The notes: generated by a model not told the origin, from the letters alone. Counted from the first letter of the stretch, positions 3,094 to 57,541 are shown. The stretch: 64,000 nt of DNA from a virus (IMGVR_UViG_3300035698_010625:1-64000); one strand, 5' to 3'. Translations and numbers: made by a program.

Positions 3094-3842
3094 TGGCTAC
3101 ACCTACAACACGAATTCAATTTCGCGAATATATCCTTCGTAGACTAGGTAAGCCAGTCCTCGAGGTTAATGTAAGTCCGGAACAAATTGACGATCGTATC
3201 GACGACGCACTAAGATTCTGGCAAGATTATCACTATAACGGTAGTTCACGTGTACTATATAAGCATGTAGTATTAGCAGCTGACATTACCAATGGATACT
3301 TAACACTCCCTGATACCTTCGTAGGTGTAGTACGCGTAGTCCCATTTTCATCTTCATGGAGTGGTGCGGGCGGAGTCTTTAGTGCTCAATATCAGTTACA
3401 TTTAAATGAAGCATTCTATCAAGTACAATCTTCAATGTTACCTTACTATGTTGCACAGCTTCATATGGCAAATGTTGATGAAATGTTTAACACTGAACCA
3501 ATGCATGAGTACAAACGCCACAGTAATCAGCTTACCGTTCACATGGATTGGGTTACAAAACAAACAGCTGGACAGTATATGATCATTGATGGATATACTA
3601 AAACATCTCCAGATACAGTAACTGATGCAGAAGGTTGGAGTGATCATGACCTCCAGCGCCTTGCTACAGCATACACGAAGCGTCAATGGGGAGAAAATCT
3701 TTCAAAATTTAGTGGTGTTCAATTGCTTGGTGGAATGACAATGAATGGAGAAAGAATTTTCCAAGAAGCACAAAATGAAATCGAATTACTTGAGAAAGAA
3801 TTCAAAGAAAACTATAACATTCCTGGGGACTTCATAGGATAA
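3093..3842 (+). CDS. gp13: neck protein (T4 gp13-like)
   Basis: YILRRLGKPVLEVNV, QWGENLSKFSGVQLLGG motifs. Confidence 0.92.
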   Translation: MATPTTRIQFREYILRRLGKPVLEVNVSPEQIDDRIDDALRFWQDYHYNGSSRVLYKHVVLAADITNGYLTLPDTFVGVVRVVPFSSSWSGAGGVFSAQYQLHLNEAFYQVQSSMLPYYVAQLHMANVDEMFNTEPMHEYKRHSNQLTVHMDWVTKQTAGQYMIIDGYTKTSPDTVTDAEGWSDHDLQRLATAYTKRQWGENLSKFSGVQLLGGMTMNGERIFQEAQNEIELLEKEFKENYNIPGDFIG

Positions 3843-4633
3843 TGCCTCTTAATCCGTGGTTTTCAAATCATTCTCATGAAGGACAGCAAAGTCTTATTGA
3901 GGATCTAGTGATTGAGTCTATCAAAATTCATGGGCAAGAGATTAGATATCTTCCACGCACTATAGTAGATGAAGATAAGATTTTTGGTGAAGATAGATTC
4001 TCAACATTTGATGCAGCTTCATCTATTGAAATGTATCCACGAAACATCGATGGTTTTGAAGGTGAGGGTGATTTCTTATCTCGCTTTGACATTGAAATCA
4101 GAGACACTATAACATTCACTGTTTCAAAGAAAAGATTCTTACAGCATCGTACAGAAGGTGTACTACAACAGAGTGGTTATAACCTTCTGCAGCAGGATGG
4201 CGCAAAAGTTCTACTTCAGGGTAACAATGGTGATGGATATAACATTACATCATCTCGTCCATTAGAAGGTGATCTGATTTATTGGCCACGACTTGATAAA
4301 GTGTATGAAATCAAATTCGTTGAGCATGAGAGCATATTCTATCAAGGTGGCGCACTTCAGACGTATGACGTACGCTGCGAATTATTCGAATATAGTAATG
4401 AAGGTATTAATACTGGTGTGGCAGAGATTGATGACATTGAAACTGAGAATACACAAGATATTCTGTTATATGAGATTCTACAACAAGACGGATCAAAAAT
4501 CTTACAGCAGTCTGGTGGATCAATTCTTATGGAACTCGGATTTAGTAAGAACGCCCAAAACAATGAAATTGAAGCAGCTACAGTGGGTTTGGTCGACTTC
4601 AGTGAAGATAATCCTTTTGCAGAGGACTTTTAA
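3842..4633 (+). CDS. gp14: neck protein (T4 gp14-like)
   Basis: LIEDLVIESIKIHG, YLPR, RPLEGDLIY, C-terminal DFSEDNPF. Confidence 0.92.
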   Translation: MPLNPWFSNHSHEGQQSLIEDLVIESIKIHGQEIRYLPRTIVDEDKIFGEDRFSTFDAASSIEMYPRNIDGFEGEGDFLSRFDIEIRDTITFTVSKKRFLQHRTEGVLQQSGYNLLQQDGAKVLLQGNNGDGYNITSSRPLEGDLIYWPRLDKVYEIKFVEHESIFYQGGALQTYDVRCELFEYSNEGINTGVAEIDDIETENTQDILLYEILQQDGSKILQQSGGSILMELGFSKNAQNNEIEAATVGLVDFSEDNPFAEDF

Positions 4634-4704: not shown

Positions 4705-5835
4705 ATGCAAACAATTGATTTTTTCATGGATCTCCCAGATGATCTATTTCCAATTTTTGAAATGTTTAAAGATGCTGATGCAGAACTCTATGTAGTTGGT
4801 GGTGCTGTACGAGACGCTCTTCTTGGTGAAACACCAAAGGACTTCGATCTCGTCACAAACGTTGAACCTGACGTAGTGCTTGAAATGGCACGAAAAGAAG
4901 GTATACACACAACTGCAGTAGGTAAAGCATTTGGAGTTGTCATTGTAAACGGCCATGAGATTGCTACTTTCAGAAAAGATATTGGAAGTGGTAGGCGCCC
5001 AGATTCAGTAGAATTTACTGATATTAACGGCGACGTCTCACGTAGGGATTTAACGATTAATGCACTCTTCTATGACACTGTTAAATGTCAGATTGTTGAC
5101 TTAGTTGGTGGGCTGGATGACCTTCTGGGCGTGGATAACGCAGATAGTCCACTCATCCGAACGGTGGGTGACCCCGCTGAAAGATTTGGGGAAGATCATC
5201 TTCGTAAGCTGCGCGCTGTGCGCTTTACTGCTTCTCTTGCAGGGAAGATGGATGATGACACGTTTACTGCAATCTGCAATAATCCGATGCTCGAAGGCGT
5301 TTCGCCAGAACGTATACGAGATGAGTTCATTAAAGGTTACATTAAAGCAGATAATAAAACAGTATATTTGAAATTGCTTCATTCAACTAGGTTAATGAAT
5401 TATATTTGGCCTACTCTGTGGGAAGTAAATTGGAATTGGGTGTTTGATGCCCTTTTCAATGTAGTCTTCGAAGATTGGAGATTACAACTTGCTGCAATGT
5501 TTGTTGGTACACCAGCAGATATGTTGAAGGACGAACTATTAAAGCTGAAATACAGTAAAGCTGAAGTATACGATATTTGCTTATTGCAGAGCCTTGACCG
5601 TTATGATTACAAAGATATTGTATCAATGAAAAAACGGTTGTCCCACACAACTCTTAGTAATGAGGATATCCTTCTATATGTGCATGACAAAAAGAAACTC
5701 AACAACTTACTGAATTTCGTGCTTACTGTAAAGGGTGGAGATGTAATGGCAGAAGGCTTTGTTGGCCCTGCAATTGCAACAGAAGTTAACCGAAGAGAAT
5801 TAGAACTATTTAGGAAAATGGATGAAGACTTTTAA
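4705..5835 (+). CDS. cca: class II tRNA nucleotidyltransferase (CCA-adding enzyme)
   Basis: VGGAVRD..KDFD catalytic motif, RRDLTINAL, EDHLRKLRAVRF (EDxxR templating motif), SPERIRDE. Confidence 0.85.
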   Translation: MQTIDFFMDLPDDLFPIFEMFKDADAELYVVGGAVRDALLGETPKDFDLVTNVEPDVVLEMARKEGIHTTAVGKAFGVVIVNGHEIATFRKDIGSGRRPDSVEFTDINGDVSRRDLTINALFYDTVKCQIVDLVGGLDDLLGVDNADSPLIRTVGDPAERFGEDHLRKLRAVRFTASLAGKMDDDTFTAICNNPMLEGVSPERIRDEFIKGYIKADNKTVYLKLLHSTRLMNYIWPTLWEVNWNWVFDALFNVVFEDWRLQLAAMFVGTPADMLKDELLKLKYSKAEVYDICLLQSLDRYDYKDIVSMKKRLSHTTLSNEDILLYVHDKKKLNNLLNFVLTVKGGDVMAEGFVGPAIATEVNRRELELFRKMDEDF

Positions 5836-6232
5836 GCAACTAAACGAATCAAAGAAGCAGGGCTACTTCGCAGTAATCCTCGATAAGCCAAGTCAAAAGA
5901 AAGTTCGTGCTTATGCTTCTTTTGAAGTCATTGATAGTAATCATATGACAGTTGCTTTTACTCCACCTTTAGAAGTATATGAAAATCTCATTAAGAATCA
6001 GGGGACTATTGTCGAGTTACGTTCACAGAGTTATTTAGAAAATGACAACATTGGAGCACTGATGATTTCACGCTCATCAGTAACACGATACGACGATAGT
6101 CCCGCTCACATAACCGTATCTAGAAAGGCTGGAGTGAGTGGAAAAGACGCTAAGAAATTACCAAGTACACACACAAAGAAACAACAAGCTGCTCATAATT
6201 TGCGTGGCAAACTACAATGGATCACGTTATGA
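5822..6232 (+). CDS. 2H phosphoesterase (cyclic phosphodiesterase fold) with capsid-targeting-like N-terminus
   Basis: Two HxT motifs (HMTVAF, HITVS); starts MKTFKQLNE. Confidence 0.65.
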   Translation: MKTFKQLNESKKQGYFAVILDKPSQKKVRAYASFEVIDSNHMTVAFTPPLEVYENLIKNQGTIVELRSQSYLENDNIGALMISRSSVTRYDDSPAHITVSRKAGVSGKDAKKLPSTHTKKQQAAHNLRGKLQWITL

Positions 6233-6777
6233 AGTCGTTTGATGAGTACATTACCGAATCACCACTGAAAGCTCTGCGATACGCTAAGAAACAACACAGT
6301 GGACAGACAAGATCTGATGGATCACCTTACATTAAACACCCTATGCGTGTTGCTAGATATTTACGTGATTTCAAAGCGTCAAAACAGTTGGATAAGTTGA
6401 TACAAGCAGCGTGGTTGCATGACACTATTGAAGACACTGACACGACCCATGAAGATTTAGAAAAGATGTTCGGAGGGCTTGTTGCTTCACTTGTTAAAGA
6501 ACTTACTTCTGATAGTGCTCGCATTAAAGAAATCGGAAAAACTGCTTACATGCAGGACAAGATGAAGCATATGTCTTCTTGGGCGCTTGCTATTAAGCTT
6601 GTAGATAGGCTTGATAACGTTCAAGATATCGCTACTGCGCGTACACCTGAATGGCGGGCTAAATATAAGAAACAAACACTCGATGTTATGGCTACACTAG
6701 AGAAGGATAGAACCCTTAGTGGAACTCATACACGAATCATTACTGCTATCAAGAAAAAATTAAGTGAAGTTGATTGA
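6229..6777 (+). CDS. HD-domain hydrolase, SpoT/Mesh1 ((p)ppGpp hydrolase)-like, capsid-targeting-like N-terminus
   Basis: HSGQTRSDGSPYIKHP, AAWLHDTIEDT, IKLVDRLDN; ATGA-coupled start at 6229 (MKSFDEYITE). Confidence 0.85.
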   Translation: MKSFDEYITESPLKALRYAKKQHSGQTRSDGSPYIKHPMRVARYLRDFKASKQLDKLIQAAWLHDTIEDTDTTHEDLEKMFGGLVASLVKELTSDSARIKEIGKTAYMQDKMKHMSSWALAIKLVDRLDNVQDIATARTPEWRAKYKKQTLDVMATLEKDRTLSGTHTRIITAIKKKLSEVD

Positions 6778-7295
6778 AAACTTTTACTACATTTATGGAA
6801 GGAAAGAAAATGAAAAACTTGGGATATCTCTACTTTGATATGGATGGCGTACTCTGTAATTTTGAGAAGCGCGCTAATGAACTCCTACCTGGAGATTCTT
6901 TCAACTACATTGGTGATAAGGAATGGAAAGTTCTCAATCAAGCAAAAGGTTTTTGGTCTGATTTAGAGTGGATACCTGGTGCTAAAGGTATGATTGAAAA
7001 GATGAAACGGTACAGTCCTAGAATCCTATCAGCATACACTAAGAGCAATCCTTCAGTGTCACAAGATGGCAAAATGAAATGGTTAGCGAAAAACATCCCA
7101 TGGATCAAAAAAGGTAATATCAACCTTGTAGTAAGGCGTGATAAGAAACTTCATGCTATGACTGATGGAAAGGTAAATATACTTATTGACGATGTTGGTG
7201 GAAACATCAAAGAATGGAATGCTGCTGGCGGTATCGGAATTTTGCATACAGAAGTACGCATCACAATGAACACATTAAAGAGGTTGGGTTACTAA
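6774..7295 (+). CDS. HAD-family 5'(3')-deoxyribonucleotidase (NT5C-like)
   Basis: DMDGVL motif I, ILIDD, W..AGGIGILH; starts MKTFTTFME. Confidence 0.8.
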   Translation: MKTFTTFMEGKKMKNLGYLYFDMDGVLCNFEKRANELLPGDSFNYIGDKEWKVLNQAKGFWSDLEWIPGAKGMIEKMKRYSPRILSAYTKSNPSVSQDGKMKWLAKNIPWIKKGNINLVVRRDKKLHAMTDGKVNILIDDVGGNIKEWNAAGGIGILHTEVRITMNTLKRLGY

Positions 7296-7354
7296 TGAAA
7301 ACATTTTCTAATTTTATAAGTGATACTGGTTATGGGAATGCTGGTGAAATTTGA
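7295..7354 (+). CDS. 19-aa micro-ORF MKTFSNFISDTGYGNAGEI (capsid-targeting-like peptide or gene remnant)
   Basis: TAATG-coupled upstream and TGATG-coupled downstream; same MKTF..F motif as neighbours. Confidence 0.45.
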   Translation: MKTFSNFISDTGYGNAGEI

Positions 7355-7779
7355 TGTATGAATATAATTGCACCATAACTAGGCATATCGATGGAGATAG
7401 TGTTGAAGTAGCTATAGATTTAGGTTTTGGTGTATGGCTACTTGAGCAATCAATAAGAGTACACGGATTAGATACACCTGAGTCTAGAACTTCTGACGCT
7501 GAAGAAAAAGTCTTCGGATTGATAGCAAAAGATAAAGCAAAAGTATTACTTCCAATTGGCTCGTCACAAACACTTGTCTCGAAGGCGTTTAAGAAAGGAA
7601 AATTTGGTAGGATTTTGGGTGACTTCAAGTTTACAGAAACCACTTATGCAGAATTCATGATAGAAAATCACTACGGTGTTGCATACTTCGGTCAAAGTAA
7701 AGATGATGTTGCTACAGAACATTTGAAAAACAGAGTTACTCTTTTGAGTAAACCAAAGGATGATGATGGCGAAATTTAA
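7354..7779 (+). CDS. thermonuclease (SNase-like) family protein
   Basis: IDGDS..IDLGF, IRVHGLDTPESRT, GKFGRILG. Confidence 0.85.
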   Translation: MYEYNCTITRHIDGDSVEVAIDLGFGVWLLEQSIRVHGLDTPESRTSDAEEKVFGLIAKDKAKVLLPIGSSQTLVSKAFKKGKFGRILGDFKFTETTYAEFMIENHYGVAYFGQSKDDVATEHLKNRVTLLSKPKDDDGEI

Positions 7780-8215
7780 AGATAACATGACTGAGATATT
7801 CGATCTTCCAGTTGATGATTTTGAAAGTATTGGGAATTTACCAGCAGTTCCAGAAAAACCTGCTACAGAACTAGTTGCTATTAACTCCCGCGATGCCGAT
7901 ATGGAAACGGATTATAAGTTCGCGCGTGAAGTTCTTATTAACACAATCAATGACGCAAGACTCCAATTAGATGAGATTTCACGAGTAGCAGAAGCTACTG
8001 AGCAACCCCGCGCATATGAAGTTGTCGCTAAACTTATAGATACTATTACAAATACTCAAAAAGAGTTAATGGAACTACATAAGAGTATGAACAACCTTAC
8101 TGGTATGTCTAAGTCAGCAAATGAGTCCGGACCTAAATCGATCACTAACAATGCTGTGTTCGTAGGGTCTACAAAGGATCTTGCTGATGCTCTTAAAAGG
8201 CTCCAACAAAGCTAA
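7760..8215 (+). CDS. gp16: terminase small subunit (gp16-like)
   Basis: DYKFARE, PRAYEV, NNAVFVGST; precedes gp17. Confidence 0.88.
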   Translation: MMMAKFKDNMTEIFDLPVDDFESIGNLPAVPEKPATELVAINSRDADMETDYKFAREVLINTINDARLQLDEISRVAEATEQPRAYEVVAKLIDTITNTQKELMELHKSMNNLTGMSKSANESGPKSITNNAVFVGSTKDLADALKRLQQS

Positions 8216-8289: not shown

Positions 8290-9990
8290 ATGATTGAAGA
8301 AGATTTAGTTCCAAAGTCGGACATGTTCCGATCTAACCCGCTTTTAAAGAGGGCTAATGTACCTATCTCGTGGACTGACGAGATGTTTCAAGAATATGTT
8401 AAATGCTCTGAAAGTGTTACATATTTCATCAATAATCACATCACCATTATTAACCTTGATGAAGGTCTCATAAAATTTAAGTTATGGGATTTCCAAGATA
8501 AAATGGCGAACACGATTGTTGATAATCGTTTCACTATAATCAAAACTCCACGACAGGCTGGAAAGACTACTACTTCAGCTGCTGTAATTCTTTGGCATGT
8601 ACTGTTTAACTCAAATTACACATGCGCTATTCTAGCTAACAAACTCGCAACATCCATCGAAATCCTTTCTAGAGTGCAGCGCGCTTTTGAAAACTTACCG
8701 AAATGGTTGCAAATTGGTGTAGTTGAATGGAATAAAGGAAGTGTTACACTAGAAAATGGAAGTAGAATTCTAGCATCTGCTACAGCTTCTACTGCTATCC
8801 GTGGATACTCAATCAACTTCCTTTATCTTGACGAATTTGCATTCGTACAACGTGGTCTTCAAGACGACTTCTTCACATCAGTATATCCTACAATTATTTC
8901 TGGTAAAAAGACAAAAGTTGTTATCACTTCAACACCAAACGGTTTCGACCTTTTCTACAAACTCTGGACAGATGCTTCAGAAGGTAGAAACGATTACGTT
9001 CCAGTTCCTGTTTACTGGTCAGACATTCCTGGGCGTGATGAAGAATGGAAAAGGAAGACTATCGCTAATACTAGTGAGAGTCAATTCCGCCAAGAATTTG
9101 AAGCAGAATTTATTGGATCAAGTAACACATTAATTTCTCCAGATGTTCTACGCCGACTTGCTTTTACTACACCTATGCTTGAAGAGTATAAAGGTGCACT
9201 GAGAATCTATGAAGAACCCGAAGTAGGGCGGACATATTTCTGCACTGTTGATACATCACGAGGAGTGGGTATCGATAACTCAGCCTTCATAGTGTATGAT
9301 TTAACGGAATATCCTTTCAGAGTAGTTGCTGCTTATTCAGATAATCTCATTGATCCTTTACTATATCCAGACATTATTTTCCAAGTAGTGAAGTGGTACA
9401 ATCAAGCATTTACTCTCATAGAAATAAATGACAACGGCCAACAAATTGCTGACATTCTCCATAACGATCTAGAATATGAGTACGTAGTATTCACATCTAC
9501 TAAAGGTCGAGCAGGACAAGTTATCGGTGGTGGTTTCTCTGGATCATCTCAAAAAGGCGTAAGAACAACCAAAGCAGTTAAACGAATTGGTTGTGCTAAC
9601 GTTAGATCAATGATTGAAAACGATCAGCTAATGTTGCATGACTATGAATTGATCCGAGAATTTTCAACGTTTATTGTTAGTAAAGATTCTTATGAAGCAG
9701 AAGAAGGAGCTAAAGACGATTTAGTAATCTGCTGTGTACTCCTTGCTTGGGCTTCTGAACAGGAATTCTTTAAAGATATTACGAACACAAACTTTAGACA
9801 GAAGCTTCTAGAGCAACGTGCAGATTCAATTTATGATTCAAGTACTCCTTTTGGATTCATGCCAGATCACGCTGATTATTTTGAACAACAATTAGAATCT
9901 GAGCAGCTTATGCAGAAATTTGGACTTGGTGGATTTAGTACTGGTGATGATGGAGACGGATTTAATGGTAGTGGGTTTGAACAATGGTAA
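8290..9990 (+). CDS. gp17: terminase large subunit (gp17-like)
   Basis: RQAGKTT Walker A, YLDEFAF Walker B, STPNG, DDLV nuclease motif. Confidence 0.97.
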   Translation: MIEEDLVPKSDMFRSNPLLKRANVPISWTDEMFQEYVKCSESVTYFINNHITIINLDEGLIKFKLWDFQDKMANTIVDNRFTIIKTPRQAGKTTTSAAVILWHVLFNSNYTCAILANKLATSIEILSRVQRAFENLPKWLQIGVVEWNKGSVTLENGSRILASATASTAIRGYSINFLYLDEFAFVQRGLQDDFFTSVYPTIISGKKTKVVITSTPNGFDLFYKLWTDASEGRNDYVPVPVYWSDIPGRDEEWKRKTIANTSESQFRQEFEAEFIGSSNTLISPDVLRRLAFTTPMLEEYKGALRIYEEPEVGRTYFCTVDTSRGVGIDNSAFIVYDLTEYPFRVVAAYSDNLIDPLLYPDIIFQVVKWYNQAFTLIEINDNGQQIADILHNDLEYEYVVFTSTKGRAGQVIGGGFSGSSQKGVRTTKAVKRIGCANVRSMIENDQLMLHDYELIREFSTFIVSKDSYEAEEGAKDDLVICCVLLAWASEQEFFKDITNTNFRQKLLEQRADSIYDSSTPFGFMPDHADYFEQQLESEQLMQKFGLGGFSTGDDGDGFNGSGFEQW

Positions 9991-22339: not shown

Positions 22340-22987
22340 ATGAAACTGATTACCGAAGTACGTTTTACTGATGTCGAAACATTTTCGGAGTCAGTTAAAA
22401 GTGGTGGAAAGAATTACTATATTGAAGGTGTGTTCATGCAGGGCGATATTAAGAATCGCAATGGCAGATCATATCCAATGGGTATTCTTGAAAGAGAAGT
22501 TAACAAAATTAATGAATCTCAAATTCAACATAATGCTGGATATGGAGAACTTGGTCACCCAGACGGTCCAACCATTAACCTTGAGAGAGTGTCGCATTTA
22601 ACACAATCACTTGTTAAAGAAGGTAATAACTTCATCGGTAAAGCAAAAATTATTGCTACGCCTTATGGAGAAATTGCTAAGACATTTGTCGACGAAGGTT
22701 CTAGACTTGGTGTATCATCACGTGGTATGGGTTCACTGCGTGATAGAGATGGAGCTAGTGAAGTTCAAGAAGATTTCACATTAGCAACACCAGCAGATAT
22801 CGTTTCTGATCCTTCTGCTCCAGATGCCTTCGTTAAAGGTATTATGGAAGGTAGAGAGTTCTATTATGATTCTGATCGCAAGACTTGGATTTCAGAAGAA
22901 ATCAAACACCAAATCAATGGAATGAGCAAGAGCAAACTTCAAGAAACTAAACTTGCTCTATTTCATAGGTTCTTACGTAACCTGTAA
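22340..22987 (+). CDS. gp21: prohead core protease (gp21-like)
   Basis: MKLITE, GELGHP, GVSSRGMGSL, DIVSDPSAPDAF. Confidence 0.96.
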   Translation: MKLITEVRFTDVETFSESVKSGGKNYYIEGVFMQGDIKNRNGRSYPMGILEREVNKINESQIQHNAGYGELGHPDGPTINLERVSHLTQSLVKEGNNFIGKAKIIATPYGEIAKTFVDEGSRLGVSSRGMGSLRDRDGASEVQEDFTLATPADIVSDPSAPDAFVKGIMEGREFYYDSDRKTWISEEIKHQINGMSKSKLQETKLALFHRFLRNL

Positions 22988-23052: not shown

Positions 23053-24207
23053 ATGCCAGACAAAAATATCATTGACGAGCTTGAGGAAGAAATTGCAGCA
23101 GAGTTAGATGATGACGATAATGAGCTCGAAGATAAAACACCTCGGCGTAAGCGTAAGAAGGCTTCTGCTGAAGATTCGGATGATCTAGGAGAAGGTAAAG
23201 CATCTATGGGTGATCCATCTGAAGATGCTACTATTATTGCTATGTCCGATAAAAAGAACAAAGCTTCAATTAAGATGAAGGGTAAGGCTACTGCAGCTAA
23301 ACTCAAGGGCGTTGAAACCCGTGGTGGAAAGATGGAAAGCAAGTTTGCTATCATCAACAACATCATTTCTGAAATGCAGGGAATGGATAAAAGTGAAATC
23401 GCTGCCGTTTACTCTAACATGTTCGAAGGAGCAGGAGTAGAAGGTTCTGAAGACGAAGTTGATTTCTCAGTAGAAATTGATGGCTTGTTTGAAGGCGAAG
23501 AGTTAACAGAAGAATTCCGTGTAAAAGCATCCACAATTTTTGAAGCTGCAGTTGCTGCAAAGGCTAACGAACGAATTGAAGAATTCGTAGTAGAAGCTAA
23601 TGCAAATATTGAAGTTGAAAAAGAAGAAATGCTTGACCAGCTCACAGAGCAACTAGACACATATCTTGACTATGTTGTTGAACAGTGGAGCGACGAGAAC
23701 AAACTAGCAATTACATCTGGAATCAAATCAGAAGTTGTTGAATCTTTCCTTGGTGGCCTGAAAGAACTATTCGTAGAACATTACGTTGATATTCCAGAAG
23801 ACCAAGTAGATGCAGTTACTGCTCTCGGTGATAAGGTCGCATCTCTTGAAGAAGATCTAAACAGTCTTACTTCAGAAAACGTACATCTTCGCGAATCTGT
23901 TAAAGGTTTCGAAAAGACTGCTGTGCTAGAAGAAGTTGGTGAAGATCTTTCTGACTCCGATTTCGAAAAGCTAAGAGTGTTTGCAGAATCTGTAGATGCT
24001 GGATCAGCTGGTGATTACCGCAAGAAGTTGGTTACTATTAGTGAGCACTACTTCGATGTTAATCCTAACAAGAAGACTCTAAGCGAAAGCAAGAAGACTC
24101 TTAACGAAGACGTAAATCCTTACACTCAATTAGATGAAGACGCTAATAAAGCTCGTTCTGCAAATAGAGTTAAAGGTGTAGCGGAAGCTATCTCAAGAAT
24201 CGTATAA
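23053..24207 (+). CDS. gp22: prohead scaffold protein (gp22-like)
   Basis: EEFRVKASTIFEAAV, LDTYLDYVVEQW, LKELFVEHY. Confidence 0.93.
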   Translation: MPDKNIIDELEEEIAAELDDDDNELEDKTPRRKRKKASAEDSDDLGEGKASMGDPSEDATIIAMSDKKNKASIKMKGKATAAKLKGVETRGGKMESKFAIINNIISEMQGMDKSEIAAVYSNMFEGAGVEGSEDEVDFSVEIDGLFEGEELTEEFRVKASTIFEAAVAAKANERIEEFVVEANANIEVEKEEMLDQLTEQLDTYLDYVVEQWSDENKLAITSGIKSEVVESFLGGLKELFVEHYVDIPEDQVDAVTALGDKVASLEEDLNSLTSENVHLRESVKGFEKTAVLEEVGEDLSDSDFEKLRVFAESVDAGSAGDYRKKLVTISEHYFDVNPNKKTLSESKKTLNEDVNPYTQLDEDANKARSANRVKGVAEAISRIV

Positions 24208-24278: not shown

Positions 24279-25700
24279 ATGGCACAACAATTTCAGGGTC
24301 TAACTGAAGCGATGAAAGCTCGTTGGGACGATGTAATCAATCATCCTGACCTTCCACCGATTACAGATCAGCACCGAAGAGAAGTAACAATTCGTCTACT
24401 GGAAAACCAGTTAGAAGATACGGCAAGTACGCCTGCACACATGCTACCAACATTGCTTGGTGAAGCAGCACCTTCAAACGCTGTCGTTGACGCGGCTGGT
24501 GGTGGTCAGATGGATACATACGATCCTGTCCTAATCGGCATGATTCGACGTTCCGCTCCTCAGATGATGGCTTATGATATCTGTGGTGTTCAGCCAATGT
24601 CCGGACCTTCTGGTCTTATCTTTGCAATGCGCTCACAGTACATTGTTGATGCTATTCCAGCTGGAACAGTACAGCCTGGCTCGACTGCTGCATCTCGTCA
24701 AGAAACTTTCTATAACGAAGTTGATACTAGATTCTCAGCTCTTGCTAACAACGTTATTGGTGGCGTTTATGACGTTACAGATAACTTCCCAGCATCTTCT
24801 AACCCAGCGCTAAACGATCCACATGATACTTCGGGTACATATGGTGTTCGTCAAGCAATGGCAACAGCTCTTGCTGAAGCACTTGGTGATACTACATCCA
24901 ATCCTTTCTCAGAAATGGGATTCAGTATTGAGAAGTTCACCGTATCTGTTAAGAGTCGTGCTCTTAAAGCTGAATACACAACAGAACTTGCACAGGATCT
25001 TAAAGCCGTTCACGGTTTGGATGCTGAAAAAGAACTTGCTAATATCCTTGCTACAGAAACTCTAGCAGAAGTTAACCGCGAAATTGTTCGTCTTATCAAC
25101 ATTATCGCTAAGACTGGTGCTCAAGAGAACGTAGCAACTGCAGGTACTTTCGATCTTGACTTAGACGCTAACGGCCGTTGGTCGGTAGAACGTTTCAAGG
25201 GCCTTATGTTCCAGCTAGAACGTGAAGCTAACAAGATTGCTAAGGATACAAGACGTGGTAAGGGTAACATCCTAATCTGTTCATCTGATGTAGCTTCGGC
25301 TCTTCGCATGGCTGGTGTACTGGATTATACTCCTGCTTTGAATAACGATCTTAAGGTTGACGATACTGGTAACACATTCGTTGGAGTACTTAACGGTCAG
25401 TTCAAGGTCTATGTTGATCCTTACTTCGCATCTGCTCAGGGTCTGCAGTACGCAAACGTTGGCTTCAAGGGAAGCAACAAGTACGACGCTGGTCTATTCT
25501 ACTGCCCATACGTTCCATTACAGATGGTTCGCTCAATCGGTGAACAGACATTCCAGCCAAAGATCGCTTTCAAGACTCGTTACGCAATTGCTGTCAATCC
25601 TTTCTCGAAAGGTGCTGCTGTTCTATCCAACCCGGATGCACGACCAGAAGCTGACGCAAACGTATACTACCGTCTGTTTGCTATCAAGAACCTTATGTAA
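24279..25700 (+). CDS. gp23: major capsid protein (gp23-like)
   Basis: DICGVQPMSGPSGLIFAMR, KSRALKAEYTTELAQDLKAVHGLDAE, FQPKIAFKTRY. Confidence 0.98.
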   Translation: MAQQFQGLTEAMKARWDDVINHPDLPPITDQHRREVTIRLLENQLEDTASTPAHMLPTLLGEAAPSNAVVDAAGGGQMDTYDPVLIGMIRRSAPQMMAYDICGVQPMSGPSGLIFAMRSQYIVDAIPAGTVQPGSTAASRQETFYNEVDTRFSALANNVIGGVYDVTDNFPASSNPALNDPHDTSGTYGVRQAMATALAEALGDTTSNPFSEMGFSIEKFTVSVKSRALKAEYTTELAQDLKAVHGLDAEKELANILATETLAEVNREIVRLINIIAKTGAQENVATAGTFDLDLDANGRWSVERFKGLMFQLEREANKIAKDTRRGKGNILICSSDVASALRMAGVLDYTPALNNDLKVDDTGNTFVGVLNGQFKVYVDPYFASAQGLQYANVGFKGSNKYDAGLFYCPYVPLQMVRSIGEQTFQPKIAFKTRYAIAVNPFSKGAAVLSNPDARPEADANVYYRLFAIKNLM

Positions 25701-50876: not shown

Positions 50877-50951
50877 GTGGCCGTGGCCGAATGGTTTAGG
50901 TGCCTGACTGTGAATCAGATTATATGGGTTCAATTCCCATCGGTCACCCCA
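50877..50951 (+). tRNA. tRNA-His(GUG)
   Basis: Cloverleaf, CT-GTG-AA loop, C73, CCA. Confidence 0.9.
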
Positions 50952-50966
50952 ATGAAAATTTACAAT

Positions 50967-51043
50967 GCCCTTCTAGCTAAACTGGACAAGGCCCTCGGCT
51001 ACGAACTGAGAGATTGAAGGTTCGAATCCTTCGGAGGGTACCA
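50967..51043 (+). tRNA. tRNA-Arg(ACG)
   Basis: Cloverleaf, CCA. Confidence 0.9.
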
Positions 51044-51223
51044 TATTAAGGAGTTTGTTATGAGTAAATGGGATTACCCCAAGACTAAGAAGAATTCTGA
51101 TGGAGCAAAACTGACTGCTGCTGAATTACGCGCACAAAGAAAAGCTCATCGGAAAGCAATTAAAGCTACTGCTCATACTGAACTCAAGACGAAGAAAAAT
51201 AAAGATCAAATTAAGTAACAATT

Positions 51224-51300
51224 GGGTGCTTCGTATAACGGCACATTATGTCGGACTCTTAATCCGAACGATCTGGGTTCGAATCCCAGGGTACCCACCA
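51224..51300 (+). tRNA. tRNA-Lys(CUU)
   Basis: Cloverleaf, CCA. Confidence 0.9.
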
Positions 51301-51315
51301 AACAAAGGTATTATT

Positions 51316-51588
51316 ATGGAATTCACTGCTGAACTTGCTAAACAAATAGTTGAAGAAGATCATGATGATTGGGAACAAGTTAATGAAGAATCTTCTAATT
51401 CTTCCCGATGGCATACTCATTACAGTGGTGTTTATAAAAATACATTAACTGGAAAATACTATGAATTTATTTGGCAGCGTGGTTCTACTGAATATCAAGA
51501 TGAAGGTACAGAATTTTACACTGACCCAATAGAAGCTGTAGAAGTTATTGAAAAATCAGTAACTGTAATGCGCTGGGTTGCTGTTTAG
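51316..51588 (+). CDS. hypothetical protein
   Basis: SRW..HY..V.K, W.RGSTEYQD phage motif. Confidence 0.65.
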   Translation: MEFTAELAKQIVEEDHDDWEQVNEESSNSSRWHTHYSGVYKNTLTGKYYEFIWQRGSTEYQDEGTEFYTDPIEAVEVIEKSVTVMRWVAV

Positions 51589-51683
51589 TTTGTACGCGGA
51601 CGGTACTGCTTGGCAGTCCACTTGAATATCTTGTGGGTCACTGCACAGTCCGGGTTGAAGAACCTTAAACTTAACTAACAATT

Positions 51684-51759
51684 GCCGGTGAAGCAATCAG
51701 GGTATTGCAACTCGTTGTCTGCGAGAGATAGGAGGGTTCGAGTCCCTTCATCGGCGCCA
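51684..51759 (+). tRNA. tRNA-Asp(GUC)
   Basis: Cloverleaf, TT-GTC-TG loop, GCCA. Confidence 0.8.
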
Positions 51760-51765
51760 ATTTTT

Positions 51766-51841
51766 GGGGGATTAGCTCATCTGGGAGAGCGTCTGTTTTG
51801 CAAGCAGAAGGTGATCGGTTCGAGTCCGATATCTTCCACCA
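51766..51841 (+). tRNA. tRNA-Ala(UGC)
   Basis: G3:U70, CCA. Confidence 0.93.
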
Positions 51842-51876
51842 TTTTACTAGAAAGATTCATATACTTTCTAGACATT

Positions 51877-51954
51877 CGTTCGGTAGCTCAGCCTGGTTAG
51901 AGCACCCGTCTGATACGCGGTAGGTCGAAGGTTCAACTCCTTCTCGAACGACCA
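51877..51954 (+). tRNA. tRNA-Ile(GAU)
   Basis: Cloverleaf, CCA. Confidence 0.88.
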
Positions 51955-52211
51955 ATTTAAAGAGCTTAGGTGTAGAAACGAGAATGCACCTTTAAGAAAA
52001 CCTTGTTGCTGGGCTACCCGATAAATCATCTTCTCAGATGTATGCAACACAAACTTCAGCTCTTCCTTTTGTACTGTCATGCGGGGTCGCCTCGGTGACG
52101 AAAGTGCTAGCGGGTACCGTCTTAGTAACGGTTTCACGAGGTGCAGGACCTCGGGGGTTTTCAGTTTCCACAATCGGGCTAGCTAAAACTGAAGTACAAT
52201 TTTATTACAAT

Positions 52212-52288
52212 GCTACGTTCGTCTAATGGACTAGGACTCTGGGTTTTCACTTCAGATAATATCGGTTCGAATCCGATACGTAGTACCA
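52212..52288 (+). tRNA. tRNA-Glu(UUC)
   Basis: Cloverleaf, CCA. Confidence 0.88.
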
Positions 52289-52296
52289 ATTTCAAT

Positions 52297-52372
52297 TCCT
52301 AGTTAGTATTCTTGGTGAGCACGGGTGACTGTTAATCACTTCAGGTAGGTTCGAATCCTACACTAGGAGCCA
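52297..52372 (+). tRNA. tRNA-Asn(GUU)
   Basis: Cloverleaf, GCCA. Confidence 0.88.
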
Positions 52373-52460
52373 AATCAATGAGAGTTTAGTTCAAGTTAGA
52401 ACATCTGGCGCAATAGTCAGAAGATGCTGGTATCGAATCCAGTCCCTTTCACCGAATAAT

Positions 52461-52546
52461 GGATGTGATGTACCGGTGGTGGTATAGCGGGCTGTAACCC
52501 CGTGGCTCTTATGGGCGAGTAGGTTCGACTCCTTCCACATCCACCA
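52461..52546 (+). tRNA. tRNA-Tyr(GUA)
   Basis: Long variable arm, CCA. Confidence 0.85.
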
Positions 52547-52634
52547 ATTTCGTTGGCAGTAAGGTCACGCATTGAGATTGACCTCCTAGTAATAGGTACC
52601 TGATGGGTAAATTAAAAAGTGCGATTTCAAATTC

Positions 52635-52712
52635 CGGTGATTAGCTCAGCCTGGTTAGAGCTCTCCGTTTGGGGCGGAGTTGCCAGAGGTTCGAATCCTC
52701 TATCACCGACCA
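52635..52712 (+). tRNA. tRNA-Pro(UGG)
   Basis: Cloverleaf, CCA. Confidence 0.92.
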
Positions 52713-52885
52713 ATAACTAATTATCTAATGTGCTTGCCGGCATATGCGGATGATTGCACGAACTTCTATTGATAACAAGCGGTAACTTGTAATCATAAGA
52801 TGAGTTAATTAGTAGTTTAACGGTAGATCGCCTGGCTGGAAGATGCGGGTTCGAATCCTGTCTAATTACTTTCGTGATTTACAAC

Positions 52886-52960
52886 AGTTCCTTAACTCAG
52901 AGGCAGAGTATCGCTTTTACACAGCGAAGGTCGAGATTTCGAAATTCTCAGGAACTACCA
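52886..52960 (+). tRNA. tRNA-Val(UAC)
   Basis: Cloverleaf, CCA. Confidence 0.88.
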
Positions 52961-53148
52961 GTAACTAATCAACAGCTCGATGGGAGTCTTGCTATTTGAT
53001 TGCACAGCGTCTTACTCCCATAAGATTTATTGATAGTGTAATGGATGCACACTGGGGTTTAAACCTGGAAGTACGGTTCGATTCCGTGATTAATAACTTG
53101 GGCTGTGATTTACAAATCGCTTGAGCAACTGCTCGCGTACAATACAAT

Positions 53149-53236
53149 GGGAGTGTGGTGGAATTGGTATACACATTGGTCTTAGAAACCAACGACTGTA
53201 ATGGTCACGCAGGTTCGACTCCTGTCACTCCTACCA
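53149..53236 (+). tRNA. tRNA-Leu(UAG)
   Basis: Long variable arm, CCA. Confidence 0.92.
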
Positions 53237-53319
53237 ATCAATGTTCGATTAGCATAATGCAATGCGGCAAGTACTTGTAGAAGAAAGCTCGAATCTTTCA
53301 TCGAACTCCAAATTTAAAC

Positions 53320-53393
53320 GCTCAATTAGTTCAATGGTAGAACAACGGCCCGGTAAGTCGTTAACGTAAGTTCGATTCTTACATTGAGCACCA
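53320..53393 (+). tRNA. tRNA-Thr(GGU)
   Basis: Cloverleaf, CCA; C at position 33 (atypical). Confidence 0.85.
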
Positions 53394-53561
53394 ATTAATG
53401 CCCGGTTCGTCTAAATATTAGGACCTCTGCCATATTTGAGCAGAAAATAAAAGTGAGATTCTTTTACCGGACACCAAACAATGCCAAGGTCGTCTAATAA
53501 TCTAAGACCCTCTCGTGATAGAGAGAAATGAGGTGTAAATCCCCCCGAGGCACCAAACAAT

Positions 53562-53637
53562 GCTGGAGTCGTCTAACGGCTAGGACTTTACATTCTCAGT
53601 GTAAACAATGCGAGTTCGAATCTCGTCTCCAGTACCA
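53562..53637 (+). tRNA. tRNA-Glu(CUC)
   Basis: Cloverleaf, CCA. Confidence 0.88.
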
Positions 53638-53642
53638 AATCT

Positions 53643-53729
53643 GGATTGATCCGCTGGGTAGGCCGGCAGCACGGTTTGAACCCGTGGGTGACCGAAAGGT
53701 TAGGGGTTCGACTCCTCATCTCTCCGCCA
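53643..53729 (+). tRNA. tRNA-Ser(UGA)
   Basis: Long variable arm, GCCA; acceptor mismatches. Confidence 0.8.
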
Positions 53730-53965
53730 ATTTTATCCTTCGCTCGTCTAATGTTAAGACACCAAACCGTGGAGGTTTGGGGATAGAGGTTTGATTCCTT
53801 TGCTTAGGACCAATTTTAATGACTACTTCCTATACGTAGGTTAATAACTGAAAAGTTAAGAGTGGTCACCAAGTTATCCCACACTCATCGAATGGTACGG
53901 TAAACGTTAAGAAACGTTTCGTGGGGAGTTTATCAGAAAGCCGTGACAGATAGACAACTAACAAT

Positions 53966-54039
53966 AGCTGCATAGCATAGTGGTAATGCGGGGGTCTTTG
54001 AAACCTCTCAGTAAGGTTCGATTCCTTATGCGGCTGCCA
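53966..54039 (+). tRNA. tRNA-Gln(UUG)
   Basis: Cloverleaf, GCCA. Confidence 0.88.
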
Positions 54040-54125
54040 ATTTTGATGTGGATATAATCTATCCCTTGTGCGGGTGCCCCTAGTAATAGGTCAAGGCAGC
54101 AAACTGCTCACATCAGATTTAATAT

Positions 54126-54212
54126 GGAAGATTAACTAGACAGGGTTCTAGAGCTGTTTGCTAAACAGATGGTACCGCAAGGTATGAGTTTCGAATACTC
54201 AATTTTCCGCCA
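54126..54212 (+). tRNA. tRNA-Ser(GCU)
   Basis: Long variable arm, GCCA. Confidence 0.87.
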
Positions 54213-54241
54213 AACATAAAGAAAAATTAAGTATTAACAAT

Positions 54242-54316
54242 GGGACTCAGGTGTAACTGGGTGCACGGCGGACTTTTAATCCGTAAGGACAGGGTTCAAG
54301 CCCTGGGGTCCCACCA
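54242..54316 (+). tRNA. tRNA-Lys(UUU)
   Basis: Cloverleaf, CCA. Confidence 0.88.
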
Positions 54317-54403
54317 AATGTAAATGGAAATGCTTCGGCATTGTAAAACTCACCGAAAGGTTTCCACCCAAGTGTGGATATAAAGAAGTTCCGATTAGTC
54401 AAT

Positions 54404-54477
54404 GCGTCTAAGTACAAGGTGTATCCTCGGGTTTCCAACCCGTAGTGAGTGGGTTTCGATTACCCCTAGTCGCTCCA
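54404..54477 (+). tRNA. tRNA-Gly(UCC)
   Basis: GCG start, U73, CCA; atypical D arm. Confidence 0.75.
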
Positions 54478-54482
54478 ACAAT

Positions 54483-54555
54483 AGTTATCTAGCTCAACTG
54501 GCAGAGCACTAGCTTCATACGTTAGGGAATCTCGGTTCAAATCCGAGGGTAACTA
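54483..54555 (+). tRNA. tRNA with CAU anticodon (Met elongator or Ile2); no encoded CCA
   Basis: Cloverleaf; ends A-CAA. Confidence 0.85.
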
Positions 54556-54561
54556 CAATCT

Positions 54562-54569
54562 TATAAATA
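54562..54569 (+). promoter_or_regulatory. T4-type late promoter inside the tRNA island
   Basis: TATAAATA upstream of the MQTFKSFTE ORF. Confidence 0.8.
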
Positions 54570-54595
54570 CTCTTTTAATAAACGAGTATCAGAAA

Positions 54596-54850
54596 ATGCA
54601 AACTTTTAAAAGTTTCACCGAAGGAAATGTCGTTAAATTTCCTAAGAAGAAAAAACAAACCCACGATGAAATTACTGGATTGCCAATTGATTCACGTCTT
54701 CCAGATACCCCAGACGAATGGATGGTTGTATCAAAGGATGAGAGTGTAGCATATAGCACTTCACCAACTCGTCAAGAAGCACAGAAAAAACTTAAGACGT
54801 ATATGATGAAGACAGGTAAGAGAGATCTTAAAGTCATCAAATTTGGCTAA
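54596..54850 (+). CDS. small late protein with capsid-targeting-like N-terminus (internal protein candidate)
   Basis: MQTFKSFTEG; own late promoter. Confidence 0.6.
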   Translation: MQTFKSFTEGNVVKFPKKKKQTHDEITGLPIDSRLPDTPDEWMVVSKDESVAYSTSPTRQEAQKKLKTYMMKTGKRDLKVIKFG

Positions 54851-54859
54851 GATAATCCT

Positions 54860-54888
54860 CGCCAAGAAGGTCTAAACCATATATAATG
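54860..54888 (+). promoter_or_regulatory. phage early/middle promoter GCCAAGAAGGTCNAAACCATATATAAT
   Basis: Near-identical copy at 61427-61453; TATAAT -10. Confidence 0.7.
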
Positions 54889-54898
54889 ATATAACAAA

Positions 54899-54970
54899 GC
54901 GGGTATAGCTCAGTGGTAGAGCGGAACGTTGCCAACGTCCAGGTCGAGAGTTCGAATCTCTCTACCCGCT
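54899..54970 (+). tRNA. tRNA-Gly(GCC); no encoded CCA
   Basis: Canonical cloverleaf; ends U-CUA. Confidence 0.9.
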
Positions 54971-55180
54971 CTAATTTAGGATTATATGATGAATTTGGGA
55001 CTAACAAGTGATTGTGAGGCAGAAGCATATTTTGATAGCGCTGATACTTACATCAAACAATACAACGCTACTTATATGTTTGAGAATAGTTCTGCGAGAG
55101 TCCGAACTATCATTGCTGAATATTTTGCTAATCTAGATAATAAAACTATTTGGCTTTGGAAAACTAAGAGTGATTGAATC

Positions 55181-55399
55181 ATGCGCCTTATCATTTCGCG
55201 GACTAACAATGACAGCACTTTGGACTTCGAAGTTCATGATGCACGTTGGGTTACTTTTAGTGATAAAATGAAAGCATTTGCTTGGACTCGTCCGGGTAAT
55301 AAGCTTGGAATTTACTTCTCCGAGGAATATGTCAATCGCCGCTTTGTGAACATCTTTTGCATTAGCGCGCTTGAGAACATGCACTGGCAGGTTAAGTGA
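55181..55399 (+). CDS. hypothetical protein
   Basis: Short ORF in small-gene run. Confidence 0.45.
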   Translation: MRLIISRTNNDSTLDFEVHDARWVTFSDKMKAFAWTRPGNKLGIYFSEEYVNRRFVNIFCISALENMHWQVK

Positions 55400-55409
55400 G
55401 GATTACATT

Positions 55410-55601
55410 ATGTGGATTCGATTTGAAGAGAAACAACCCAAACAAGATAAAGACCTTTATTACTTCTTCGATGTAGTAGGTGTTCACTCAGGGCGCTATT
55501 ACGGCGGTGATACATTTCAAGGCCGAAGAGGTTTTCTCAATGGTGACGTTACTCATTGGCAATATGATAAAGGGCAGGGAAAACCTGCTGAACCAAAATG
55601 A
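55410..55601 (+). CDS. DUF551-like small protein
   Basis: MWIRFEEKQP...VTHWQ pattern. Confidence 0.55.
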   Translation: MWIRFEEKQPKQDKDLYYFFDVVGVHSGRYYGGDTFQGRRGFLNGDVTHWQYDKGQGKPAEPK

Positions 55602-55606
55602 ATAAT

Positions 55607-55683
55607 GCAAGAGTGGCTCGACTGGTGAAGGCCGGCGTCTTATATGCGTCTATATGTGGGTTCGAATCCCGCCTCTTGTACCA
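55607..55683 (+). tRNA. tRNA-Ile(UAU)
   Basis: GGCGT-CT-TAT-AT-GCGTC arm, CCA. Confidence 0.85.
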
Positions 55684-55691
55684 AAATATTT

Positions 55692-55768
55692 CAGGGTATA
55701 AGTCAGTCTGGTAGACACCCCGGTTTGGAACTGGGAAGCCGTTGGTTCGAATCCAACTACCCTGACCA
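55692..55768 (+). tRNA. tRNA-Pro(UGG), second copy
   Basis: Cloverleaf, CCA. Confidence 0.9.
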
Positions 55769-55785
55769 TTTAAAGAGAGTACATT

Positions 55786-56046
55786 ATGCTTACATTCAAT
55801 ATTAAAGATTTCTTTTGTTGGCATAGTATTCAAAAAGAAGAGTCATTTGAAGCTTTTCATGCAAGAGCAGAAGCACTGCATGAAACTTATCAACATTGGA
55901 CTCCTGTAAATGAAATTGAAAGAACAAATAGAGCAGTATGTTTTGTATCTTTTATTAACAATCACCCAAAAATCGTAAATCCATATACTGGTAAAACAAA
56001 AAAACAATTTTCTTTAACGGAATATCCTATATCTACCTTGTCTTAA
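55786..56046 (+). CDS. hypothetical protein
   Basis: ORF between tRNAs. Confidence 0.45.
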   Translation: MLTFNIKDFFCWHSIQKEESFEAFHARAEALHETYQHWTPVNEIERTNRAVCFVSFINNHPKIVNPYTGKTKKQFSLTEYPISTLS

Positions 56047-56069
56047 AGGTTGTATAATGATTATTCAAT

Positions 56070-56145
56070 ACACGGTAAGCAATTATGGTTAATGCGCTGG
56101 CTTGAAGTCCCAGATAACTAAGTTCGATTCTTAGACCGTGTACCA
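56070..56145 (+). tRNA. tRNA-Phe(GAA)
   Basis: Cloverleaf, CCA. Confidence 0.85.
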
Positions 56146-56168
56146 ATTTATTATGGAGTGACTGTGAT

Positions 56169-56870: not shown

Positions 56871-56954
56871 ATGAATTAAGGGAAACGTTGGTTCGAGTCC
56901 AACTCCTGCGCTGGTGCAAAGGATCGTAATTGATGGCCAAGACACCCTTACGTT
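56870..56954 (+). ncRNA. circularly permuted tRNA-like RNA (YrlA/Y-RNA-like order)
   Basis: TAAGGG/CCCTTA stem enclosing T arm, then closed acceptor-like hairpin, then D-like arm. Confidence 0.55.
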
Positions 56955-56959
56955 ACAAT

Positions 56960-57033
56960 GTTGATATGGCAGAATGGTTATGCCGTGGCTTGCAAACCCA
57001 CTTACTCTGGTTCGATTCCGGATATCAACTCCA
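56960..57033 (+). tRNA. tRNA-Cys(GCA)
   Basis: U73, CCA. Confidence 0.88.
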
Positions 57034-57358: not shown

Positions 57359-57380
57359 CTGTAATAGATTAAAGAATAAT

Positions 57381-57538: not shown

Positions 57539-57541
57539 AAT

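Follow-up and report, generated by a model that had tools for sequence, protein, structure and literature searches.

The DNA analyzed here is a 64-kb window (IMGVR_UViG_3300035698_010625:1-64000), the first part of a 105,618-bp IMG/VR contig that is ~59% complete by CheckV and comes from an uncultured marine T4-like myovirus. Within it, a cassette of six tightly overlapping open reading frames (ORFs) fills the interval between the genes for gp14 (3842-4633) and gp16 (7760-8215), and all but the last of these ORFs begin with a short leader resembling the capsid-targeting sequence (CTS) of T4 internal proteins. All six are on the plus strand. The first encodes a CCA-adding tRNA nucleotidyltransferase (4705-5835) whose initial residues, MQTIDFFMD, form a degenerate leader with Ile4 and with Asp in place of Glu. 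It is followed by a 2H phosphoesterase of the CNPase/Trl1 cyclic phosphodiesterase (CPD) type (5822-6232) with HMTV and HITV motifs and the leader MKTFKQLNE/S at 5822-5848, where the slash marks the end of the leader; by a Mesh1/SpoT-type small alarmone hydrolase of the HD_4 family (6229-6777; leader MKSFDEYITE/S at 6229-6258); and by an NT5C-family HAD 5'(3')-nucleotidase (6774-7295, TTG start) with a DMDGV motif and the leader MKTFTTFME/G at 6774-6800. The last two are a 19-aa leader-only ORF (7295-7354) that starts MKTFSNFISD, with Asp at position 10, and an endonuclease of the staphylococcal nuclease (SNase) family (7354-7779; PF00565 1e-5, phrog_452 2e-22), which has no leader.

The 2H gene begins 14 nt before the end of the CCA gene, there follow four junctions with the overlaps ATGA, TTGA, TAATG and TGATG, and the gp16 start lies 20 nt inside the SNase gene. 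These overlaps and the matches of the flanking genes bear out the description in an earlier note, made from the sequence alone, of four translationally coupled ORFs between gp14 and gp16, and the four ORFs at 5822-7354 were found with the first residues given there (MKTFKQLNE, MKSFDEYITE, MKTFTTFME and MKTFSNFISD). The block also holds two genes absent from that note, those for the CCA-adding enzyme (4705-5835) and the SNase-family nuclease (7354-7779). An alternative in-frame ATG of the HD gene at 6217 is the less likely start. For the HAD gene, an alternative ATG at 6810 with GGAAGGAAAG before it would yield a leaderless protein.

The genome-wide scan for leader starts suggested in the earlier note was run on the whole contig with the pattern ^M[KQ][TS][FYI]x2-3[FLYIM]x[ED], using thirty third-order Markov shuffles as the control. 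There were 11 matches on the plus strand, all at ORF starts, and 0 on the minus strand, versus a mean of 0.63 per strand expected by chance; the enrichment is not a chance effect. A looser regular expression gave a background too high to be useful. Codons of the conserved residues vary among the copies (AAG or AAA for Lys; ACT, ACA, TCG or TCA for Thr/Ser; TTT or TTC for Phe), so the constraint acts on the peptide. A repeat, promoter or recombination box at the DNA level was rejected as the origin of the shared starts because synonymous positions vary.

The general form of the leader is M-K-(T/S)-F-x-x-(F/Y/L)-(I/x)-x-E followed by a small residue. Ten of the 11 leaders have F at position 4, the CCA enzyme having I there; all 11 have F, Y or L at position 7, and all ten Glu-type leaders continue with S, G or A after the Glu. 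Three leaders (MKSFDEYITE, MKSFKSYITE and MKTFNKFIAE) have exact I-x-E at positions 8-10, the other six Glu-type leaders are one residue shorter with [LF]-x-E at 7-9, and Asp replaces Glu in two, those of the 19-aa ORF and the CCA enzyme.

The T4 record gives MKTYQEFIAE as the start of both ipII and ipIII and MKTFKEF as the start of ipI, whose 19-residue propeptide ends ITE/A; the comparison with T4 internal proteins on which the earlier note was built therefore holds. The CTS of IPI, IPII and IPIII was reportedly described by Mullaney and Black in 1996. In T4, ten N-terminal residues are enough for packaging, residues 4 and 7 serve targeting, residues 8 and 10 serve processing, and Asp at position 10 blocks cleavage while targeting is kept (PMC9026906). 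Foreign enzymes including staphylococcal nuclease have been packaged by means of the T4 CTS (PMC9026906, PMC3012670), and the literature describes Alt as a natural packaged enzyme of T4. At these positions, known from mutants, the leaders agree with the T4 CTS: at 4 and 7, which direct targeting, and at 8 and 10, which direct cleavage, though with exact I-x-E in three only. A 54-aa hypothetical protein of T4 itself, gp61.1 (NC_000866 18966-19130; L018:1367-1531, minus strand), starts MKTFKEFIKE/D, a near-perfect CTS; its annotation does not call it an internal protein.

The presumed processing enzyme of the leaders (gp21) and their presumed docking partner (gp22) are encoded by the same phage. 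A T4-type prohead protease gp21 (S77 family) was found at 22340-22987 (PF03420 1.6e-33; phrog_207 8e-72), the gp22 scaffolding core protein at 23053-24207 (phrog_237 6e-69) and the gp23 major capsid protein at 24279-25700. The major capsid protein has a leader-like N-terminus, MAQQFQGLTE/A (24279-24308), relatives of which start MYLSE/Q and MTKATYSE/L, and gp21 opens MKLITE (22340-22357). These starts suggest very short, gp21-cleaved propeptides on head proteins.

Genes for gp14, gp16, gp17, gp21, gp22 and gp23 are all on the plus strand. The upstream border of the cassette, in the late structural operon, is the gp14-like neck protein gene (PF11649 T4_neck-protein, 2e-30), and downstream lie the small terminase gene for gp16 and the large terminase gene for gp17 (8290-9990), both assigned from PF11053, PF03237 and PF17289. 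In its large terminase the phage shares 55% identity with Methylophilales phage Melnitz and ~51% with cyanophages and pelagiphages; no match to the cassette region turned up when its nucleotide sequence was searched against 50,697 phage records. The T4 late-promoter box TATAAATA occurs at 12 plus-strand sites on the whole contig, with a 12:1 coding-strand bias; the eight in the window are at 1534, 10002, 15052, 21233, 22999, 24230, 42135 and 54562, and boxes lie 30-70 nt upstream of gp18, gp22, gp23 and a leader ORF at 54596. The nearest such box upstream of the cassette is at 1534-1541. Since none of these boxes belongs to the cassette itself and nothing convincing as a terminator was found between it and the one at 1534-1541, the cassette is most simply read through from the late operon. 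Its position inside the neck/terminase operon means that the enzymes would be made late, as they must be if they are to be packaged.

The catalytic folds do not include the leader, which is an add-on to them. All 11 copies are at the extreme N-terminus, and the folds begin at residues ~10-16. Homology of the HD protein to human MESH1 begins at residue 13. In AlphaFold2 models, the predicted local distance difference test score was 94.6 for the 2H protein and 62 for its first 10 residues, and 89.2 for the HAD protein and 50 for its leader. Many 2H homologues start directly at the domain.

The conservation called for in the earlier note was found: the leader is kept in orthologues on T4-like contigs and is absent from non-T4-like homologues. 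HD orthologues in other viral contigs start MKSFNQFREE, MIRFKAFISE, MLSFSHFIKE and MRSFKTFVDD; CCA-enzyme orthologues at 17 viral loci bear the leader in the form M..F..[FY][ILV].E; and HAD orthologues start MKSFSQHLVE or MKRFEQYLVE, or follow, as a fusion, a P-loop kinase starting MKSFDQFLTE. In the cultured phage Melnitz, the annotated genes include a P-loop kinase that opens MKTFAELQE; the strict DNA pattern for MK[ST]Fxx[FY] has no site in Melnitz. Leader-bearing contigs encode gp21 and Gp23 wherever they are long enough to tell. Six CCA loci of another phage group lack the leader, and their 92%-complete representative lacks gp21 and Gp23. HD homologues in Vibrio phage phiKT1024 and jumbo phage BcepSauron have no leader, nor do homologues in cells, and SNase orthologues never bear one. 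In two contigs (L004 and L012), unrelated neighbour genes share the contig-specific version of the leader, and leader identity is 0.49 within genomes versus 0.41 between genomes (permutation p = 0.003).

Virion data were available for proteins of another marine T4-like phage, the cultured cyanophage S-SM1, with leaders of this kind. Its gp190 (cytidylyltransferase-like, T4-GC190) starts MKKFSAFLNE/A and its gp192 starts MLSFKELQE/K. In purified S-SM1 virions, gp190 was detected with 25 peptide counts and gp192 with 7, and the neighbours gp188 and gp191 were also detected (Sullivan et al. 2010, PMC3037559, main text and Table S8); neither internal proteins nor a targeting sequence is mentioned in that paper. 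S-SM1 gp190 shares 45% identity with a protein of contig L004 that bears the leader, and L004 also has a leader-bearing HD orthologue.

Because they carry the same short tag that is used for loading the T4 head, the enzymes of the cassette probably travel in the virion and are delivered together with the DNA. The packaging proposed in the earlier note is thus supported as far as sequence can support it. In this scheme, the leader would dock the enzymes onto the gp22 scaffolding core of the prohead and gp21 would clip it after the Glu; the trimmed enzymes would then remain inside the head and reach the new host along with the DNA, ahead of all phage gene expression. An alternative, which we consider unlikely, is that the leader is an N-terminal helix with another role (initiation context, regulated proteolysis or activation, or a cytoplasmic complex) and that the enzymes work only in the producing cell. 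An M-K start is a common high-expression context, leader-only mini-ORFs exist, and the CCA enzyme and the possible leaderless HAD isoform from ATG 6810 suggest cytoplasmic use. Against this, conservation is at the amino-acid level while codons vary, and it coincides exactly with the positions for targeting and cleavage in T4, a small residue following the Glu. The leader is also limited to T4-like, gp21-bearing genomes and is carried by S-SM1 proteins present in virions, whereas none of the contig's replication or core metabolic genes bears it.

What the packaged enzymes would do was considered from their identities. The CCA-adding enzyme matches PF01743 (PolyA_pol head domain, 1e-26), PF12627 (RNA-binding, 6e-7) and phrog_2244 (2e-47), by which it classes as a class II CCA-adding enzyme. 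ARAGORN identified 29 tRNA genes in the window (50877-63268), with CCA encoded in 24/29, and since most of these tRNA genes already encode CCA, the enzyme looks like one for repair rather than maturation. One tRNA-like gene at 53028-53097 has a TTA (stop) anticodon.

The 2H protein had no match in Pfam, PHROGs or PDB sequence searches, and neither it nor the HAD protein found anything in word-based protein searching or in scans of viral contigs. An exhaustive HMMER search was therefore used to collect the 2H family, of which 25 representatives have two HxT motifs in common; the 21 aligned relatives (alignment A1) keep HMTV and HITV, and two relatives match PF08302 (tRNA_lig_CPD). By structure comparison (VIA), the model aligned with the CNPase catalytic domain at Z 13.1 (root-mean-square deviation 2.3 Å over 125 residues), with the CPD domain of fungal Trl1 tRNA ligase (6u05) at Z 10.9 and with Acb1 (7t26) at Z 7.8, the last with no sequence-level match. 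The fold and both HxT motifs uphold the 2H phosphoesterase call of the earlier note; the likeness to Acb1 that it drew is not supported, the matches to CNPase and Trl1 being closer. CCA::2H fusions were found in P0002 (leader MRFSQFLRE), L020 and L021-24; among the CCA loci compared, a fusion of CCA to this 2H family is confined to L020 and L021-24. A second CCA set (L030/31/33/41) has a different tail with HITL...HVSI motifs only and no Pfam call. The 2H domain is also fused to HD_4 in P0023 and to HAD in P0008.

The HD protein is a single-domain protein matching PF13328 (2e-19) and human MESH1 (PDB 3nr1, 1e-21 over residues 13-175), with the HD...ED and DRLxN metal/catalytic motifs kept, so the Mesh1/SpoT-like assignment of the earlier note is confirmed. 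MESH1 and bacterial small alarmone hydrolases (SAHs) strip the pyrophosphate put on tRNA CCA ends by the toxic small alarmone synthetases (toxSAS) FaRel2, PhRel2 and CapRel, and MESH1 additionally removes the 2'-phosphate of NADPH (Kurata et al. 2021). The HAD protein matches PF06941 (4e-11) and phrog_2643 (5e-25); its model, aligned from residue ~14 on, scored Z 15.5 against 3bwv and 14.x against cdN/mdN, and the NT5C-like nucleotidase call also stands on this cdN/mdN-like fold. A PDB sequence search with the HAD protein found no match, and its match to phrog_415 ("polynucleotide kinase") is weak, 3e-6 only. HAD relatives fused to a Zeta/AAA_33 P-loop kinase have a Pnkp-like architecture.

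We lean towards the reading that the leader is a portable T4-type capsid-targeting propeptide by which late enzymes are packed and injected, and that the cargo is a tRNA 3'-end healing kit. The cassette reads mainly as a kit for healing tRNA or RNA 3' ends because the 2H protein is CNPase/CPD-like and fused to CCA enzymes, and because it is accompanied by a Mesh1-type HD and a HAD protein. The most likely targets are tRNA 3' ends. All three activities (a CNPase/Trl1-type cyclic phosphodiesterase, a Mesh1-type (pyro)phosphohydrolase and a 5'(3')-nucleotidase) would act on phosphorylated 2'/3' ribose, and their genes would be co-translated with that of the adjoining CCA-adding enzyme. In such a pathway, tRNA 3' ends with a 2',3'-cyclic phosphate, a 2'/3'-phosphate or a 3'-pyrophosphate would be unblocked and the CCA would then be rebuilt. 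Repair of this kind could pre-empt tRNA-directed abortive infection by CapRel/FaRel2-type toxSAS and by tRNases that leave a cyclic phosphate. Comparative genomics has already revealed phage RNA-repair kits with CCA-adding enzymes among their members (PMC7824862).

The earlier note had offered both RNA-end healing and the destruction of cyclic-oligonucleotide signals as functions, and the fusions favour the former over the latter. If packaged enzymes instead destroyed immune signals, the 2H protein would act on the cyclic oligonucleotides of the cyclic oligonucleotide-based antiphage signalling system (CBASS), as Acb1 does, and the HD protein on (p)ppGpp/(p)ppApp, with no RNA repair. Acb1 is a 2H enzyme and is among the structural matches, the HD protein is a bona fide Mesh1/SpoT-type hydrolase, T4 acb1 (57B) adjoins ipI, and injected polyvalent proteins with signal-degrading domains have been proposed (PMC7824862). 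Set against these points are the much closer similarity of the 2H model to CNPase and the tRNA-ligase CPD than to Acb1, the PF08302 matches and CCA fusions of the 2H family, and the translational coupling of the 2H gene to cca, and signal destruction as the whole function seems improbable to us. Least probable is a scavenging role for phage DNA synthesis in a nutrient-poor ocean, in which SNase would cut host RNA/DNA to 3'-phosphonucleotides, the 2H enzyme would open 2',3'-cyclic nucleoside monophosphates (on which CNPase-type enzymes act) and the nucleotidase and HD enzyme would release nucleosides and phosphate: the SNase gene is in the same coupled block, the HAD fold is of the mononucleotide type and a HAD::2H fusion exists, but recurrent CCA::2H fusions and the leader are left unexplained, and SNase has no leader and its orthologues are inconsistently linked to the other cassette genes.

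Several observations weigh against a packaged tRNA-end healing kit. Three of the four cassette leaders are 9-mers ending [LF]-x-E and not the canonical I/L-x-E at 8-10, and the CCA enzyme of this phage itself has a degenerate leader (Ile4, Asp9). Translation of the HAD leader depends on a TTG start, and 36 nt downstream there is an ATG with a good Shine-Dalgarno sequence. The S-SM1 virion proteins belong to families other than the cassette enzymes. HD orthologues elsewhere are not beside CCA or 2H genes, so that the HD-2H link consists of adjacency here and one fusion, and the Mesh1-like enzyme could equally act on (p)ppGpp or (p)ppApp. Finally, the HAD fold is that of a mononucleotide 5'(3')-nucleotidase; T4 Pnkp was not among its matches, and there was no match in the T4 genome.

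Note that the leader-carrying families in the contigs studied extend beyond the cassette. They comprise the CCA-adding enzyme, cyclic phosphodiesterase, Mesh1-type hydrolase, nucleotidase and P-loop kinase, and further a S-adenosylmethionine (SAM) lyase, a non-specific endonuclease, a cytidylyltransferase-like protein, DUF6267 and DUF5824. A wider proposition, which we hold tentatively and at somewhat less than even chances, is that in marine T4-like phages one portable N-terminal code loads a changeable set of enzymes, giving a pre-assembled tRNA-repair and anti-defence toolkit at injection, the cargo being swapped by recombination at the leader. The CTS and injected internal proteins are already known concepts. 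What appears to be new is the natural use of a CTS on a broad enzyme set in marine T4-like phages and the linkage of CCA, 2H, HD and HAD proteins; none of the papers listed by a full-text literature search for "capsid targeting sequence" together with "internal protein" dealt with marine phages.

If the leader works as in T4, it would provide a sequence-readable label for the proteins that abundant ocean phages inject with their DNA, and hence a direct route to first-minute counter-defence factors in metagenomes. Enzymes, besides small inhibitor proteins, would then be routine capsid cargo, and damage to tRNA 3' ends (cyclic phosphate, pyrophosphorylation or CCA loss) would be a defence answered before gene expression. 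A 3'-end healing pathway that can be tested is defined by the recurrent fusions CCA::2H, HD::2H and HAD::2H, and natural leaders could serve as packaging tags for engineering T4-like heads.

Elsewhere on the contig, leaders were found on the plus strand in an 84-aa ORF (54596-54850; MQTFKSFTE/G) inside the tRNA island, 34 nt downstream of the TATAAATA box at 54562-54569; in mini-ORFs of 28 aa (76635-76721) and 24 aa (84575-84649; MKTFNKFIAEA); and in three adjacent ORFs (starting at 85223, 85642 and 86070) by an M15-type endolysin gene. Each of the three leader-only mini-ORFs (19, 28 and 24 aa) precedes an ORF in the -1 frame. At 84575, a run GCAAAAAGGG sits where a -1 shift would join MKTFNKFIAEA... 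to a very basic ~50-aa peptide that resembles a T4 internal protein; an assembly error, decay of a cargo gene or genuine frameshifting could account for this arrangement. Programmed frameshifting from the 19-aa ORF into SNase was rejected because the zero frame lacks an X XXY YYZ heptamer; the ordinary UGAUG stop/start overlap at this junction was also counted against it. SNase orthologues had neither a leader nor a mini-ORF upstream.

Variants of the leader's attachment were seen in other contigs. A related 117-kb contig (G001, the contig of L022) has leaders at 31934, 40035, 71266, 74926 and 76386, carried by a SAM lyase-family protein, a DUF6267 protein, a DNA/RNA non-specific endonuclease, a 487-aa protein and a CCA::2H fusion. 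The DUF6267 protein of the present contig (77057-78262; L079:2058-3263) starts MKTDNDHIEHLED, whereas its L004 orthologue starts MKTFKQYIAEQKNVHMQHLED, so the leader here seems to have been lost by a short deletion. A K-W-D-G motif of DUF6267, read by eye, may be reminiscent of ligase motif I; a PDB sequence search with this protein found no match. At L010:2-6460, an orthologue of the HD enzyme (61% identical) occupies residues ~1345-1487 of an ORF of >2153 aa in which Pfam recognised no further domain, and which may be a giant injected polyvalent protein. In kinase::HAD fusions (L030:5388-6569, L031 and L033; alignment A2), the inter-domain linker L-K-E-F-D-x-P-Q aligns with the leader end (LVE/FD.PQ) of stand-alone HADs, and these fusions may be gp21-cleaved polyproteins. 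The CCA ORF of L038 (591 aa) contains an internal leader-like MLSFIQYITE/A ~150 residues from its C-terminus, which gives it the look of an in-frame fusion with a leader-bearing gene.

Comparison with known RNA 3'-end healing systems gives both likenesses and differences. As with T4 Pnkp/Rnl1 and the CPD of fungal and plant Trl1, and with the HD domain of bacterial CCA-adding enzymes as a further comparator, a cyclic phosphodiesterase, a 2'/3'-phosphatase and a CCA enzyme would be set against tRNA-directed defence. Unlike those systems, the activities here are on separate small proteins or in new fusions (CCA::2H), the phosphatases are of Mesh1-type HD and NT5C-type HAD rather than Pnkp type, and no RNA ligase was identified in the cassette. 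The HD protein shares its HD_4 fold and catalytic motifs with MESH1, ATfaRel and PaSpo, SAHs that reverse tRNA pyrophosphorylation by toxSAS; it differs from them in being phage-encoded, in its 10-residue capsid-targeting-like leader and in lying beside cca and a cyclic phosphodiesterase gene. The 2H protein is, like anti-CBASS Acb1 (T4 gene 57B), a small phage-encoded member of the 2H superfamily, but it has only structural similarity to Acb1 (Z 7.8), no sequence relation and other domain partners.

The nearest comparison for the leader is with T4 IPI-III, which have the same N-terminal tag, MKT(F/Y)xx(F)IxE, with a small residue after the Glu and gp21 and gp22 in one genome. The second leader cluster (84.5-86.7 kb) adjoins an endolysin gene as T4 ipII and ipIII adjoin e, and the cargo set varies between related phages, as it does with T4 internal proteins. 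In contrast to those small basic inhibitor proteins, the cargo here consists of recognisable enzymes of 136-376 aa (≤545 aa in relatives); many leaders are one residue shorter, and the clade is one of marine Kyanoviridae-like phages. T4 Alt and the CTS fusions of the Black laboratory (β-galactosidase, SNase and GFP) are likewise cases of enzymes housed in a T4-type head, where gp21 processes them, and released into the host at infection. The target of Alt is host RNA polymerase and the CTS fusions were engineered, whereas here the tag occurs naturally on hydrolases of RNA and nucleotide ends.

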